From: Ignavibacteria bacterium
GTDB taxonomy: Bacteria; Bacteroidota; Ignavibacteria; Kapaibacteriales; UBA4661
Direction of reading: 5' to 3'
Length of the DNA stretch: 64,000 nucleotides
NCBI GenBank assembly: GCA_013298775.1
Contig: JAAFIV010000003.1
Coordinates: 141,460 to 205,459, forward strand
Shown: piece after piece, positions 31,272 through 36,816 of the stretch
Layout of the letters: every line of letters starts with the position of its first letter
How positions within the stretch are numbered: position 1 is the stretch's first letter
Notes under the pieces: model-generated
Database searches by the model: none
What the model was told of the DNA's origin: nothing
The model's input: only the letters and a program-made list of their open reading frames with translations
Translations under genes and position numbers: made by a program

Positions 31272-31334
31272 CTGAAAGAAATTCCTCGCTCATGTGTCAT
31301 TCCTGAAATCCCGTGTTTACTCAATTCTTTTTCG
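31272..31334 (+). promoter_or_regulatory. Conserved ~65-bp 5' leader shared with the third beta-barrel paralog (36047-36108)
   Basis: CTGAAAGAAATTCCTCGCTCATGTGTCATTCCTGAAATCCCGTGTTTACTCAATTC is near-identical at both loci, directly upstream of paralogous genes. Confidence 0.6.
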
Positions 31335-31341
31335 ATACAAT

Positions 31342-32004
31342 ATGCGTTTGTTTCTCTTGTTCTTCGCGATAGCAATCGTGCTACCAGCAAGTACCTACGC
31401 CGCTTTTGGCGAAGGCACCGACAGCACCAAAACTGATTCCAATCAAGTACGAATGTACCAATACATAGGCGCAAGTGCCATGCTCACAACGGGACATCGC
31501 ACACTCGGCATCCCGCCAGAGTTTGCTGCACAGTTCGGAGATGCGCCGCTTGTGAGTTTTGGCTTGCATGGCGTGTGGCTAGGAGATTTGCTCTTCAAAA
31601 CCAACAAACTCCGCACCTCTTACGGCATTGAGAAAATCCTGAACGCTTATCCTTCGCCGCGTATCTTGGAAAATATTCGTTTTGCTGTTCAGTTTGGCTA
31701 CTACGTTTTTGAGCAGGAAATGACGCAGAAAGGGCTGAAAGCCTATCCTTTTCTTGGTTTTTCCTCAAGCATTTACTACGTCGATAATGGTGTTCGCCTG
31801 AGTGTTGCTTCTGTGGAAGGCGGCGCAGGTGTGGACTGGTTTGTCCCCCAGACACCGCTTCTCGTCGGCATTCAAGCCTCGTACAATCATAGTTGGAATC
31901 TTCGCGCGGCGCAGAATGTGGCGAATAATGTGGGTGGCGTTTGTGTGAAAGCGCAGGTTTCTATTTTTATTCGGGAGAAGAAGAATCCTTTGGGATGGGA
32001 CTGA
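31342..32004 (+). CDS. Outer-membrane beta-barrel protein, paralog A of three
   Basis: Signal peptide ending ASTYAAFG, alternating beta-strand pattern and a C-terminal aromatic residue (GWD). About 60% identical to 35310-35990. Confidence 0.55.
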   Translation: MRLFLLFFAIAIVLPASTYAAFGEGTDSTKTDSNQVRMYQYIGASAMLTTGHRTLGIPPEFAAQFGDAPLVSFGLHGVWLGDLLFKTNKLRTSYGIEKILNAYPSPRILENIRFAVQFGYYVFEQEMTQKGLKAYPFLGFSSSIYYVDNGVRLSVASVEGGAGVDWFVPQTPLLVGIQASYNHSWNLRAAQNVANNVGGVCVKAQVSIFIREKKNPLGWD

Positions 32005-32291
32005 AAGAAAGGCATGATACGTCCTTTTGAATGTGCCTCAACACAAGATTTTATCAAGCCTACAAGCCTCTTTTTTGATTTCTGCACTTTTAAGTGCTTT
32101 TCCCTGCAAGCCTGATGACACCTTGCTTTGAAGTTATTTTATTTTCAGGGTCAGTGAATTGTTGAATGCAGCTACATTGTACAACTGCATATTGTTCATA
32201 GAGATAATTCCATCTTTTTGTTATCTTACGCTATGAATAAATGTGGGTAGTATTGGTGTTCGATGTTCAACATTTTCCCTGATTCTGCCGT

Positions 32292-32831
32292 ATGCTTACT
32301 GCTACTGCTTTGGCGGATATTGATTCCGCTCTGCGCCATGCCGAACAAATGCGTTTGTTCGCAGACTGGCTCTTGCAACAACATGAACCCGTTCTTCTTC
32401 AAGCGGTCTTTCAGCCCTCGCAGAACGCTGTTTCGCTGTGTGCTGAGAGCGGCGAGAGTATGTTGCTGCCCTACGACGACATTCTTTACTGCCTCGTCAG
32501 CGAGCATTTTAGCGAGTTGTACTACCACGTCCCACCTCTCGGCAAAACGGTACAGAAATCCCTCCACAACAAGCCCCTGAAAGACTGGGAAGCAATGCTG
32601 CCCAGCACCCTTTTTGTGAAGGTGAATAAATCCTGCCTCATCAACAGCAAGCACGTGCGCGTTGTTGAGCGTTGGGACACGGGCAAGGGCTTTCTGCTGA
32701 CCATGAGCGACGGCAAAGAAATAAAAGTCTCGCGCAACCACGTGGAGAAGCTCCGCGCCCTGTGTGCGGCACGTTTCCCTATCCTGCAGGTGTATGGTCG
32801 TGGGGGGGGGGCAGACGAAAGAGCCGCGTAA
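32292..32831 (+). CDS. Stand-alone LytTR-family DNA-binding regulator. No receiver domain; it ends in a G10 homopolymer tract.
   Basis: The C-terminal FVKVNKSCLINSKHVRVVERWDTGKGFLLTMSDGKEIKVSRNHVEKLRAL matches the LytTR domain consensus. The N-terminal ~80 aa lack receiver-domain Asp motifs. Confidence 0.7.
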   Translation: MLTATALADIDSALRHAEQMRLFADWLLQQHEPVLLQAVFQPSQNAVSLCAESGESMLLPYDDILYCLVSEHFSELYYHVPPLGKTVQKSLHNKPLKDWEAMLPSTLFVKVNKSCLINSKHVRVVERWDTGKGFLLTMSDGKEIKVSRNHVEKLRALCAARFPILQVYGRGGGADERAA

Positions 32832-32914
32832 AAATAAGCCCTAACAATTTGGGAATAAAGAAGTAAACGCTGGTTTGAAATTTCAAAATTCTTTGCAGAA
32901 AATCACTGTACGGA

Positions 32915-33022
32915 GGACACTTTCCGCGAATAATACCTGCGCGAAGTGTCCTCTTCTTGTGTAAAAAACGCGAAAGTGGACACTTGAGGAAGTAATGCGG
33001 ACACTTCAGGAAAAGGCACTTG
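32915..33022 (+). promoter_or_regulatory. Cluster of five GGACACTT repeats, including two 9-bp direct repeats with a 12-bp spacer. Candidate LytTR box.
   Basis: GGACACTTT (32915), rc GGACACTTC (32943), GGACACTTG (32978), GGACACTTC (32999), GGCACTTG (33015). The 32978/32999 pair has the 9+12+9 LytTR-type geometry. Confidence 0.5.
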
Positions 33023-33242
33023 TGAAGAAAAAAGGAATCGTGTAGATTCGCACTTGTTACGCTGAAATGATAAACATTCTCAGGAATAACAAAACAAACG
33101 GCTCACCGCTTTTCTTCCGCTTGACGGTGAACCGCTTGTGAGGAAAAACCTCGCTGCATCAAGGAAAAGTTTTCGCGGACTTTCTTGACATGATGCAAAA
33201 CTACACATTTTTTACGAGCGGAAAAATTTTCTGGAGTTTTGT

Positions 33243-33464
33243 ATGAAAACCCAAAAACAACGTTTGGCGGCAATGATGTTTGCTGTGTTAGTCTTTGGAG
33301 CTGGTATGACACCAGTCCTTGCTAATTCAGCCGCTTTGAAACTTATTGTATTTGTTGGCGGTATTGTCCTAAATGGACCTCCAGAGATTTACACACCGAT
33401 GATGGTAGGTGCGGTCGTTGCTGGATTTACCCCTTTATGGCCAGTTGCTGTCGGTCTTTTATAA
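33243..33464 (+). CDS. 73-aa hydrophobic peptide with 2-3 TM segments, first gene of the AT-rich island
   Basis: MKTQKQR then three hydrophobic stretches. It is preceded by an 18-codon uORF (33190-33246) whose stop overlaps its ATG (ATGA). Confidence 0.35.
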   Translation: MKTQKQRLAAMMFAVLVFGAGMTPVLANSAALKLIVFVGGIVLNGPPEIYTPMMVGAVVAGFTPLWPVAVGLL

Positions 33465-33599
33465 TCGCCGCAAACTTATTTCACTCTACGTTTGCTTGAA
33501 ATTTGGATTTGATTTTCAAGGAAAATCTATTCAAAATTTCAAGCAAACGGAGGGTAAATAATTTCTATACATCCATCTTTTGAATAGTGCCAATCCATC

Positions 33600-34403
33600 A
33601 TGATACGAACCTATAAAACTCATATCTTATTTCATGGAATAGCATTAGCAGTTTTTTTTGCTTGTTTTTCTGCATACGCTTTTACATCCTTGAAAGTTGG
33701 ATTTCCCTTTGCAAACAAACTTATAGGAATCTTTCAAGCCGTCTGCGCCATCAGCCTAATACTTATCTTTTCACATAAAACCTGTCAAAGTATTCTCAAC
33801 AATATGAAAGGCTTATATGATGGTGTAGCTCGTGGTGATAGCTTGCTTTCTAAAAATTTTGCAATCATTATTGTCATTGCCTGTATCGCAATCACAGTTA
33901 TTCATTTAACCTATATTTCATCTTACATCCAATTCACAAGCCACTTGGATAATCCCCATGTTGAAAAACTATTATACGCCTTTACAATCATTGGTTCATC
34001 GGTAGGAATTCTTATAAATTGGCTGCTATTATCGGCATTATCGTATTTATTGGCAACAGCTCTTGACATTCATCACAATTTTAATTTTTATGTCTCTGCC
34101 GTCGGTATAGGGCAGATAGGGATGTTTCTTGCGATATTTACTGCATTCCTGATGAGTTTACTTACATTAGACTCAATGATGTCAATCTCGCATTTTGCTG
34201 AAATGTCCATAAATTCTTATGAGCGAAATATGATTGGTAAATTCGGTGAATTTGTTATGCTATTTATCATTTGCTGCTTCTTAATGCTCAATGAAAAAAT
34301 ATCTTCAAAATATGCCGTAATTATAGCATTTGTGCCAACTCTACTTGTCGGTTTCATCAGTGAACTTGTAAAATTTTTGACCCAAAATTTATTCTTGCAA
34401 TGA
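33600..34403 (+). CDS. Polytopic membrane protein (Yip1-like?), AT-rich island
   Basis: 267 aa, 6-7 TM, ~35% GC against a ~50% background. It overlaps the next gene by 4 bp (ATGA). Confidence 0.5.
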   Translation: MIRTYKTHILFHGIALAVFFACFSAYAFTSLKVGFPFANKLIGIFQAVCAISLILIFSHKTCQSILNNMKGLYDGVARGDSLLSKNFAIIIVIACIAITVIHLTYISSYIQFTSHLDNPHVEKLLYAFTIIGSSVGILINWLLLSALSYLLATALDIHHNFNFYVSAVGIGQIGMFLAIFTAFLMSLLTLDSMMSISHFAEMSINSYERNMIGKFGEFVMLFIICCFLMLNEKISSKYAVIIAFVPTLLVGFISELVKFLTQNLFLQ

Positions 34404-34990
34404 AAATCTTTAGACGCTTTTTGCAGCTATCAGAACTACAACAAACATATATCCTTTTACTCTGTTTGTTAGGGGCATTATTGATAGGGTTGTTTTGTGG
34501 CATAAAATCTTCAGCAAGTGTAAGTAACACTTTAGTTTTACAGGCAAGTAGGGATGCTAATATTATTGAACAAGCTACTTTTGTAACATTTCAAAAAATA
34601 GCTGTAAACAACCTATTATGCGCTGGTCTGTTACTCACAAGTTTCTTTTCCTTTGGCTTAATACCAATTTTGATAATTGCTTACAACGGCATCATGATTG
34701 GCTATACCCTGAAACTTGGATGCAACCAAATTGGTGTTTTACCCACTTTAGCATTAGTCTTGCCGCATGGTGTTGTAGAAATGACAGCAATTTTATTTGC
34801 TGCATTTTTAGGAATGCGCATATCCATTGCTTTCATTGAGTTTTTGCAGTCCGATATGGAAAACAAACGATTTTTTTCAATGTTATTTAGTACCCAAAAT
34901 ATTCTTCTACTGGGATTGATACTCATTGCCGCCTTAATTGAATCTTTTATTACACCATACATTTACGACTATGTTCTGCATTCAATCTAA
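34400..34990 (+). CDS. DUF95/SpoIIM-like membrane protein, AT-rich island
   Basis: LPHGVVEMTAILFAAFLGM resembles the conserved HG..E..A motif of SpoIIM/DUF95. It has 5-6 TM segments. Confidence 0.5.
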   Translation: MKIFRRFLQLSELQQTYILLLCLLGALLIGLFCGIKSSASVSNTLVLQASRDANIIEQATFVTFQKIAVNNLLCAGLLLTSFFSFGLIPILIIAYNGIMIGYTLKLGCNQIGVLPTLALVLPHGVVEMTAILFAAFLGMRISIAFIEFLQSDMENKRFFSMLFSTQNILLLGLILIAALIESFITPYIYDYVLHSI

Positions 34991-35309
34991 GCAAAAAACA
35001 CAGAGTGAATACGTCCATTTTCCTCGTAGTATTGGCAATATTGAGCATTTTCAATAATCTCAGCCTTCACGCACAAAAACTAAAACCTTCCTCACGATGC
35101 GACTTCTCGCTGGCAAGCCTCTCACTACCTGGGTATCGTATTATCAATACAAGTAGGCTACGCATTCATGGGGTCTCCGCGCTCCAAAAGATGTCCCAGA
35201 CAATCAGTCATAAATTACTAGATTTAACCTATCGTTCTGGCTCCGCAACCAATCTTCCCAACGGGAACTTTAGCCTTCTTCTTTTTCCGTACTCTATTTT
35301 CATATCGTT

Positions 35310-35990
35310 ATGTCTTACCATTTCTCCCTCCGTTGTTTGGTTTTCCTATCCATTGTATTTCTTACTACACCGAGTATATACGCTGCTTTGGGCGAAGGCA
35401 CAGATAGCACCAAAACTGACTCTACACAACTGCGAATGTATCAATACTTGGGCGCAAGCTCTATGCTCACAAGCGGACACCGCACACTTGGCATCCCTCC
35501 GGAATTTGCTACGCAGTTCGGTGATGCACCGCTTGTGAGTGTTGGTTTTTATGGCGTGTGGGTAGGAGATTTACTCTTTAAAACTAGTAAACTCCGCACG
35601 GCTGCTAGCTTTGAGAAGATACTTAATGCTTATCCGTCATCGCGCATATTTGAAAACTGGCGTTTTATGGCACAGTTTGGCTACTATGTCGCTGAACAAG
35701 AGAGTAATAAACCTAAAGGACTGAAAGCCTATCCTTTCCTTGGGTATAGCTGGAATTTATACTACATAGACAATAGTGTTCGTATGAGCATTCTTTCTGT
35801 GGACGGCGGGGCGGGCGCTGACTGGTTTATCCCCCAAACCCCAGTGCTGGTCGGCGTTCAAGCCTCCTACAATCACAGTTGGAATCTTAGTGCTGCAAAG
35901 GAAGTAGTAAATAATGTAAGTGGTTTGTCTATTAAAGCACACATCGCAATTTTTATTTTTGAGAAAAAAAATCCTTTCGGCTGGAACTAA
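35310..35990 (+). CDS. Outer-membrane beta-barrel protein, paralog B
   Basis: Collinear with paralog A (GEGTDSTKTDS...RMYQY...HRTLGIPPEF...NHSWNL...GWN). Confidence 0.55.
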   Translation: MSYHFSLRCLVFLSIVFLTTPSIYAALGEGTDSTKTDSTQLRMYQYLGASSMLTSGHRTLGIPPEFATQFGDAPLVSVGFYGVWVGDLLFKTSKLRTAASFEKILNAYPSSRIFENWRFMAQFGYYVAEQESNKPKGLKAYPFLGYSWNLYYIDNSVRMSILSVDGGAGADWFIPQTPVLVGVQASYNHSWNLSAAKEVVNNVSGLSIKAHIAIFIFEKKNPFGWN

Positions 35991-36046: not shown

Positions 36047-36108
36047 TTCCTCGCTCATGTGTCATTCCAGAAATCCCGTTTTTACTCAATTCCTTTTGAA
36101 AAAATATG
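36047..36108 (+). promoter_or_regulatory. Second copy of the conserved 5' leader (see 31272-31334)
   Basis: Near-identical to the leader of paralog A. Confidence 0.6.
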
Positions 36109-36816
36109 CGCTTGCTTCTTTATTTCTGGATAATAGCAATCGTGCTACCATCAAACATTTACGCGCTCGGCATGGAGAGCGATAGCACACAAACTCGCAT
36201 GGGTAGCGTGTACGCGGGTATTACCCCAGCAAATACGGCAACCGCCGACAGCCTCCGTGCAGATTCAGCAAAGGTGCGGATGCGGCAATACGTTGGAGCC
36301 GCCTCGACGCTTACTACCAATCACCGCTCGCTTGGTCTTCCAGCAGAATACGCTGCACAGTACGGAAATATGCCGCTTTCCAGCGTTGGCATCAATTTTA
36401 TTGCTATCGGCAATTTCCTTTTCCAAACCAATCGTTTGCGTTCTTCCGTCACATTTGAACGCTTTGTGAATGTCTATCCCTCGAACAAAATACTGGAAAA
36501 TTTTCGAGAATGTCTTCAAATCGGCTACTACGTCTATGAGCGAGATGCTATCAAGCTGTATCCATTCATTGGCGGCACGGTGGGATTGTACTACATAGAT
36601 AATGGCATTCGATTGGGTGTGTTTGCAGCAGAAGCAGGTGCGGGGCTTGATTACTTCATTCCCAAGACCTCGCTGCTTGCTGGACTACAAGTTTCCTACA
36701 ATCATACGTGGAATATTCGGTCTGCGGCGGATGCTGTCGGTAATATCGGCGGTGTGGCAGTGCGGGCGCACGTTTCCATCCTCTTTAGCGAGCGCACCAC
36801 GTGGTGGGGCTGGTAA
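36106..36816 (+). CDS. Outer-membrane beta-barrel protein, paralog C (more divergent)
   Basis: Same domain order with a longer N-terminal Thr/Ala-rich segment. It ends WWGW. Confidence 0.55.
   Translation: MRLLLYFWIIAIVLPSNIYALGMESDSTQTRMGSVYAGITPANTATADSLRADSAKVRMRQYVGAASTLTTNHRSLGLPAEYAAQYGNMPLSSVGINFIAIGNFLFQTNRLRSSVTFERFVNVYPSNKILENFRECLQIGYYVYERDAIKLYPFIGGTVGLYYIDNGIRLGVFAAEAGAGLDYFIPKTSLLAGLQVSYNHTWNIRSAADAVGNIGGVAVRAHVSILFSERTTWWGW

Follow-up and report, generated by a model that had tools for sequence, protein, structure and literature searches.

Directly behind a gene for a LytTR-domain protein, the window (the whole 64 kb stretch of Ignavibacteria bacterium DNA analysed here) carries a cluster of five short repeats, and genes for a small hydrophobic peptide and two membrane proteins follow the cluster. 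A preliminary description had presented the five repeats together as one candidate LytTR box. The locus raises the question of whether these repeats serve as an operator for the neighbouring regulator, which of the copies would belong to that operator, and which genes would be controlled through it. Our analysis indicates that two of the five copies, here called the direct-repeat pair (DR1 and DR2), are likely to be the operator through which the adjoining LytTR protein activates the downstream membrane-peptide operon. The coordinates of all features are given in Table 1.

Repeat Cluster Downstream of the LytTR Gene

For the five repeats and their positions, the sequence reads exactly as the preliminary description had claimed, and the gene immediately before them, which it had called a LytTR gene, encodes a product that matches the LytTR family of Pfam. 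On both strands of the 64 kb window together there are four exact copies of GGACACTT, none of them outside a segment of 92 bp (32915-33006), whereas the shuffled window contained a mean of 1.3 copies, spread across all 64 kb. The shorter word CACTT was present 7 times in the ~140 bp of the repeat cluster, as against 100 times in 128 kb (both strands). The clustering of GGACACTT is far beyond chance. With 0 mismatches, GGACACTT[G/C]AGGAA was found at 32978 and 32999 only, 21 bp apart from start to start. In the canonical 9-mer register, ACACTTSAG-N12-ACACTTSAG had one perfect match in the 64 kb window. When 9-mer pairs with at most 3 mismatches in total were counted, a spacing of 21 gave 2 matches, while each of the other spacings from 15 to 29 gave 0 or 1.

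The five copies fall into three kinds: a hairpin has copies 1 and 2 as its arms, copies 3 and 4 make up the putative LytTR box, and copy 5 overlaps the predicted -35/-33 element. Copy 5 (GGCACTTG) lies 16 bp from copy 4, out of phase with the pair, and overlaps the predicted TTGTGA element. The candidate box of the preliminary description is thereby narrowed to copies 3 and 4, and the hairpin arms and the out-of-phase copy 5 are removed from it. The pair at 32978 and 32999 does lie between the regulator and the small-peptide genes, as had been proposed. The search of the 64 kb yielded no second box, which leaves no regulon to support specificity. A weak second 9-12-9 match at 34506-34535, AATCTTCAG-N12-ACACTTTAG with 2+1 mismatches, falls inside the SpoIIM-like coding region and is regarded as chance.

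Table 1. Features of the LytTR locus, with positions in the window.
Feature	Position	Strand	Basis
Stand-alone LytTR regulator gene, 179 aa, N-terminal helix and LytTR domain	32292..32831	+	Pfam LytTR (PF04397), E 2.6e-16, residues 56-157
Hairpin, arms formed by copies 1 and 2 (GAGGACACTT / AAGTGTCCTC), then TCTTGTGT	32912..32954	+	RNA fold
Repeat copy 1, GGACACTTT	32915		read from sequence
Repeat copy 2, GAAGTGTCC	32943		reverse complement of GGACACTTC
Repeat copy 3, GGACACTTG	32978		read from sequence
Predicted DR1, distal LytTR half-site GGACACTTGAG; 9-mer core ACACTTGAG at 32980-32988	32978..32988	+	motif search, L002 conservation
Repeat copy 4, GGACACTTC	32999		read from sequence
Predicted DR2, proximal LytTR half-site GGACACTTCAG; 9-mer core ACACTTCAG at 33001-33009	32999..33009	+	motif search, L002 conservation
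Repeat copy 5, GGCACTTG	33015-33022		read from sequence
Predicted -35 (or Bacteroidetes-type -33), TTGTGA	33020..33025	+	L002 TTGTCA at same offset from DR2
Predicted -10, TAGATT(CG) (or -7 box TAGATTCG)	33043..33050	+	L002 TAAATT(TG) at identical offset
Inferred structured 5' leader, about 188 nt	33055..33242	+	fold -50 kcal/mol, z -3.0
73-aa hydrophobic peptide gene, first downstream gene	33243..33464	+	ORF; GGAG 6 nt before ATG
Yip1-like polytopic membrane protein, 267 aa	33600..34403	+	weak Pfam Yip1, E 0.0037, below curated cut-off
SpoIIM-family membrane protein, 196 aa	34400..34990	+	Pfam SpoIIM, E 1e-22

Direct-Repeat Pair and Predicted Promoter

The layout of the window is ACACTTGAG-12 bp-ACACTTCAG-10 bp-TTGTGA-17 bp-TAGATT(CG), and the period of DR1 and DR2 corresponds to two helical turns from start to start. 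The hexamers of the predicted promoter are mediocre (4/6 and 4/6), and the consensus promoter scan did not flag them because their score of 8/12 was under the cut-off of 9. Written in the Bacteroides format, the window promoter is TTGT-19 bp-TAGATTCG and that of L002, the contig of a distant ortholog, is TTGT-19 bp-TAAATTTG. The L002 element TAAATTTG fits TAnnTTTG, a motif with only modest enrichment ahead of genes in the 64 kb, and both loci can be written as TTGT-19 bp-TAnnTTnG. The predicted promoter suits a sigma-70-type and a Bacteroidetes-type description alike, and a transcript from it would start near 33055. At the sequence level, the pair has the repeats, the spacing, the half-site, the adjoining LytTR gene and the conservation of a LytTR box.

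The Stand-Alone LytTR Regulator

LytTR is the sole Pfam domain in the 179-aa regulator, and the open reading frame is bounded by an upstream stop, so that no longer N-terminus is possible. No receiver domain was detected as a Response_reg match in Pfam or NCBIfam, and the NCBIfam LytR and BtsR models matched the C-terminal DNA-binding part only, far under their cut-offs. There was no histidine kinase among the neighbouring genes scanned. The 179-aa regulator is not a two-component response regulator. Simple hydropathy gave no hydrophobic segment in it. In the AlphaFold model (mean pLDDT 79), a predicted helix at residues 4-29 is followed by a LytTR beta fold; the best Foldseek matches to this model were the LytTR domain 3d6w (TM 0.81) and full-length ComE 4cbv, and a PDB sequence search with the regulator also returned 3d6w.

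The context of the regulator gene is chromosomal, with UvrA, MurG, AccC and NusA encoded nearby, and the host carries markers of the FCB group (Fibrobacterota-Chlorobiota-Bacteroidota), namely a T9SS type A sorting domain as well as a TonB receptor beside DUF4249. The GC content of the LytTR gene is host-like, unlike that of the low-GC block downstream. Upstream of the regulator, 9-mer pairs spaced by 20-22 and identical at 8/9 positions or more were found neither in the window (32005-32291) nor in the 457 bp before the L002 gene. Within 2 mismatches, GGACACTTNAG was absent from 32005-32291 of the window, and the L002 stretch held one isolated minus-strand match at 832. As there is no box upstream of the regulator, the locus differs from the classical, autoregulated operon of a LytTR Regulatory System (LRS).

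Two further observations were made around this gene. A run of 10 G at its 3' end (32802-32811) codes for the Gly residues of ...GRGGGADERAA and is the sole G or C homopolymer of at least 8 in the 64 kb window. At the same place, the close relative L001 has 13 G (about 942-954), in frame and with one extra Gly, and L002 has 9 G (about 1625-1633). The run could be slippage-prone, in which case it would touch the C-terminal tail of the regulator only. The paralog gene that precedes the LytTR gene is itself followed by a terminator-like palindrome, GCACTTTTAAGTGC, with TTTTCC behind it (32084-32097), and L002 carries CTCTGCACTGAAAGTGCAGAG at about 858-878 upstream of its own LytTR gene. Both palindromes hold GCACT/AGTGC, which recalls the box core in an inverted and not a direct arrangement.

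Conservation of the Pair with the Regulator Gene

A word-indexed protein search with the regulator returned only the regulator itself and one 90% identical copy. An exhaustive HMMER search of 1.84 billion representatives gave one further full-length relative, P0003, with 48% identity, and the remaining matches covered the generic LytTR domain only. Protein-pattern scans of genome, metagenome and viral contigs, collections that apparently do not include the window's own genome, found no relative of the regulator. The regulator was found in two independent lineages only. L001, the contig of the 90% identical protein, shows 94% DNA identity to the window, and L022 is 100% identical to it; both are too close to be informative on conservation to more than a small degree. 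In DR1 of L001, position 9 alone differs (G to T). Logan-assembly contigs from SRR9948930 and SRR7244341 contain the locus or a 94% identical copy.

L002 is a 1.8 kb contig that carries P0003 and ends 75 bp after DR2, before any downstream gene. Here the stop codon of the regulator is followed by 77 bp and then by GGACACTTCAG-N10-GGACACTTCAG, with the 9-mer cores at 1736-1744 and 1757-1765. The layout of L002 is ACACTTCAG-12-ACACTTCAG-10-TTGTCA-17-TAAATT(TG), with all spacings, including the offset of the -10 box, identical to those of the window. An ungapped alignment of the window and L002, anchored on DR1, gave identities of 10/40, 10/11, 3/10, 11/11 and 5/6 for the 40 bp upstream of DR1, DR1, the spacer, DR2 and the -35 hexamer, respectively. 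In this one independent comparison, the repeats are identical at 21/22 positions, and the spacer and flanks are at background (about 25-30%). Ahead of the L002 regulator lies a gene with no relation to its counterpart in the window, and no alignment was obtained between the intergenic regions upstream, which indicates that the box moves together with its regulator gene. Exactly the repeat pair and the predicted promoter hexamers, at identical spacings, are conserved along with this regulator gene. The proposal that 32978 and 32999 form a 9-12-9 box of the LytTR type gains support from this distant ortholog, which is followed by the same pair at the same spacings.

Genes Downstream of the Box

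The first gene behind the predicted promoter encodes the 73-aa peptide, which has three hydrophobic segments and, as read by eye from the sequence, a signal-peptide-like N-terminus. The peptide is an orphan among 5.8 billion proteins. In L001, its gene is present after the same intergenic region, and it is probably the first target of the box. Rfam searches of the intergenic region and the leader gave nothing that reached a gathering score; the sub-threshold matches were to miRNA precursors, as generic hairpins. The leader contains an ORF of 24 codons (33068-33142), which a 1-nt deletion frameshifts in the L001 copy and which is probably non-coding. In the 33186-33214 region, a stretch that is almost invariant between the window and L001, a perfect TTGACA lies 52 nt upstream of the peptide ATG. 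This TTGACA (33186) has no convincing -10 and could be an alternative constitutive promoter.

The Yip1-like protein has about 6-7 hydrophobic segments and the SpoIIM-like protein ~5, and the start of the SpoIIM-like gene overlaps the stop of the Yip1-like gene. Both genes are contained in a low-GC block (33400-35000, 31-36% compared with ~52% in the flanks), which suggests acquired DNA. The genes for membrane proteins that follow the regulator, with the 73-aa peptide gene first, are located 411 bp past it, behind the hairpin and a predicted promoter of their own. Nothing informative on what the target genes do came from searches of NCBIfam, PADLOC and plasmids. The 73-aa peptide gene is separated from the Yip1-like gene by a long hairpin (33476-33561) with a ~40 bp stem (-38 kcal/mol, z -5.3), which also gave sub-threshold Rfam miRNA-precursor matches. 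This hairpin may serve in processing or stabilisation, or as a partial terminator through which the level of the peptide is uncoupled from those of the membrane proteins.

Three paralogous genes (31294-32004, 35310-35990 and 36106-36816) encode proteins of 226-236 aa with signal-peptide-like N-termini, identities of 69% and 53%, and no Pfam family. The LytTR gene and the island have these genes on either side, which looks as though a tandem array of paralogs, located upstream of a TonB-dependent receptor, had received the block as an insertion.

Hairpin Formed by Copies 1 and 2

The hairpin behind the regulator gene has a stem of 12+4 pairs and a loop of 9 nt; its fold reaches -27.4 kcal/mol (z -5.3), a value equalled by none of 200 shuffles. 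From the LytTR stop codon, the distance is 81 nt to the start of the hairpin and 83 nt to repeat copy 1. The tail UCUUGUGU contains 5/8 U, and L001 has a better U-tail, UUUUUGUAU. The consensus terminator scan did not list the hairpin because the 9-nt loop exceeds the limit of the scan. The hairpin, in position and shape as expected, is probably the intrinsic terminator of the LytTR gene, and by ending the regulator transcript it would make the downstream unit dependent on the box promoter and not on read-through. L001 keeps the hairpin at -22 kcal/mol with copy 1 changed to GGATACTT, a C to T substitution that breaks the DNA motif and leaves the pairing intact as G-U. In L002 the hairpin is absent, and no extra copies of the motif were found between the stop codon and DR1. 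The hairpin is specific to the window/L001 lineage, and the substitution in L001 together with the absence from L002 favours an RNA-level, lineage-specific role for copies 1 and 2.

Both arms of the probable terminator share the same 8-10 nt with the box. Candidate reasons for this are auxiliary binding sites, or a local duplication of the box that gave rise to the hairpin. If the arms were auxiliary sites, all four copies of GGACACTT would be LytTR sites, and the arms would form an inverted pair that, once occupied, blocks or modulates read-through from the regulator gene or loops to the direct-repeat pair, so that the regulator's transcript would be under feedback. Chance cannot account for the two additional exact 8-mers, which lie within 65 bp of the box; copy 1 begins 63 bp (3 x 21) ahead of DR1 and thus on the same helix face, and copy 2 is complementary to DR1 and can pair with it as well. 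Against these points stand the lack of the hairpin copies in L002, the GGATACTT variant of L001, which gives up the DNA motif and keeps the RNA pairing, and the unusual inverted arrangement, since the sites of AgrA, ComE and the LRS are direct repeats; auxiliary binding is therefore unlikely, although it deserves some weight. We give slight credence to a re-wired LytTR system without autoactivation, in which the regulator would act from a box behind its own terminator to drive an operon of orphan membrane proteins, these proteins would inhibit the regulator in a negative loop, and the terminator arms would be extra sites that couple occupancy to termination or read-through of the regulator mRNA.

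Motif Occurrences Elsewhere and Remaining Alternatives

A regulon scan with GGACACTTNAG-N10-GGACACTTNAG returned 3 genome, 16 metagenome and 2 viral loci. All of them were multi-copy tandem arrays of 21 bp or ~10.5 bp, or coding repeats, and phmmer with 112 LytTR proteins found no LytTR gene beside any of them; they were taken as unrelated repeats. Several metagenomic contigs carry 21-bp tandem arrays containing GGACACTTnAG, which are probably unrelated to the window box. In L005 (3370-3610, identical in L011), from Bacteroidetes bacterium UBA1947, about ten 10-11-bp units GGGACACTTCA are followed by about ten GGGAACCTTCA. This intergenic array lies between the gene for a T9SS-secreted protein and argS, has no LytTR gene nearby and is likewise probably unrelated. 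Among the papers searched, none joins this motif with LytTR.

It is improbable that the direct repeats are bound by another protein, or are remnants or ends of a mobile or duplicated element at the border of the low-GC island, and that the LytTR gene is next to them incidentally. The low-GC block beginning ~400 bp downstream and the 21-bp GGACACTTnAG arrays in unrelated metagenomic contigs, where no LytTR gene is nearby, would agree with such an origin, but the pair is conserved beside a LytTR ortholog though the upstream gene is unrelated. Moreover, the 11-bp units alone repeat within each locus and the spacer does not, unlike in a tandem duplication, and both geometry and sequence fit LytTR boxes, with the predicted promoter at the canonical 10-bp distance.

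We consider it very improbable that the repeats act as RNA, either in the 3' UTR of the regulator mRNA or as an attenuator in which copy 2 pairs with copy 1, 3 or 4 to control read-through. The hairpin is strong, an alternative pairing of copy 2 with DR1 is possible and the downstream leader is structured. However, L002 keeps DR1 and DR2 without a complementary copy and without significant structure (z +0.67), and conservation of the exact spacing to the -35/-10-like hexamers is a mark of action at the DNA level. That a short word clustered by chance, which only the shortness of the 8-mer would favour, is hardly credible in view of four exact copies in 92 bp where 1.3 are expected in 64 kb, and of 21/22 positions conserved at the same place in a diverged ortholog.

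Proposed Mechanism

The reading of DR1 and DR2 as the operator of the adjoining regulator is preferred here. With the pair placed as activator sites of the LytTR type before a predicted promoter, the membrane-peptide genes are probably switched on by the regulator next to them. The repeats with their spacing and conservation, the hairpin and the LytTR fold are observed; that the protein binds and activates, where transcription starts, how far the operon reaches and which signal is in control are parts of the model that we infer. The 179-aa LytTR protein would bind DR1 and DR2 as a tandem dimer, on one helix face and next to the -35 element, and the dimer would perhaps be held by the N-terminal helix of the regulator. 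The bound protein would recruit RNA polymerase to a promoter whose -35/-33 element would include part of copy 5, and the transcript would start at the position predicted above. It would cross the ~188-nt structured leader, whose length, like the mediocre promoter hexamers, counts against the model, into the 73-aa peptide gene and would probably continue into the Yip1-like and SpoIIM-like genes. The hairpin of copies 1 and 2 would end the regulator transcript and insulate the downstream unit from read-through. By analogy with the LRS, a membrane protein could sequester the regulator.

The locus thus supplies a concrete predicted operator-promoter for an almost orphan stand-alone LytTR regulator of an uncultured FCB-group bacterium, and the regulator would be linked to a small, probably acquired set of membrane-peptide genes.

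Comparison with Known LytTR Systems

LRS boxes are typically ACCACTTAC-12 bp-ACCACTTAC, with CACTT on the same strand and a strong preference for 10 bp to the -35 element (PMC6193735). Like the window, the LRS of Streptococcus mutans (HdrRM and BrsRM) have a small soluble LytTR regulator without a receiver domain, two 9-bp direct repeats with a CACTT core in the same orientation, 12 bp apart and 10 bp from a -35 element, which is predicted in the window, and membrane proteins encoded just downstream of the regulator. Unlike in the LRS, the box of the window lies downstream of the regulator, behind a probable terminator hairpin, and positive autoregulation of a regulator-inhibitor operon is not the layout. 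DUF2154 has been reported in the LRS inhibitor HdrM (PMC6193735), whereas the 73-aa, Yip1-like and SpoIIM-like proteins of the window gave no Pfam match to DUF2154. An inhibitor role for the downstream membrane proteins of the window would be pure conjecture.

In the LRS-like operons of Bacteroides (B. thetaiotaomicron and B. ovatus), 11-bp repeats are located upstream of TGTA-19 bp-TATCTTTG (PMC6193735, Table 3). These operons share with the window the 11-bp units, which are GGACACTTSAG in the window, ahead of a promoter, predicted in the window, in the Bacteroidetes-type format. They differ from it in the sequence of the repeat, in an 11-bp spacer (period 22) and in a distance of 11 bp to the promoter. 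They also differ in regulators with transmembrane segments and in the gene order, in which the membrane protein gene is first.

AgrA sites, which are imperfect direct repeats [TA][AC][CA]GTTN[AG][TG] placed 12-13 bp apart upstream of the -35 element (PMC5600425), are known from the agr P2/P3 promoters of Staphylococcus aureus. The 9-mer of the window half-site matches this consensus at 8/9 positions; position 4 is G in the AgrA consensus, whereas the window has C there, as LRS boxes do. AgrA also differs from the window regulator in being a two-component response regulator.

ComE and the window share 9-12-9 direct repeats. The ComE consensus aCAnTTcaG is nearly identical to the ACACTT[C/G]AG of the window. 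However, ComE works as a response regulator that is phosphorylated, has a receiver domain and is paired with the kinase ComD, and the window regulator has neither such a domain nor a kinase; the two proteins have the LytTR fold alone in common, at 18% identity. At the comCDE, comAB and comX promoters of Streptococcus pneumoniae, the ComE boxes are imperfect 9-bp direct repeats with a 12-bp linker, which are bound by LytTR domains packed in tandem (PMC4005675).

Taken together, these likenesses suggest that the 9-12-9-10 bp geometry of Gram-positive quorum-sensing and LRS promoters is also present in a very distant lineage, with a half-site that is nearly ComE-like. The locus is a clean but ordinary case of a known type of switch, and the general view of LytTR regulation is unchanged by it; its box is placed downstream of the regulator gene and not upstream. 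As judged from its motif, spacing and conservation, the element of the window is a LytTR box for a receiver-less LytTR regulator, built of LRS-like parts in a different wiring.
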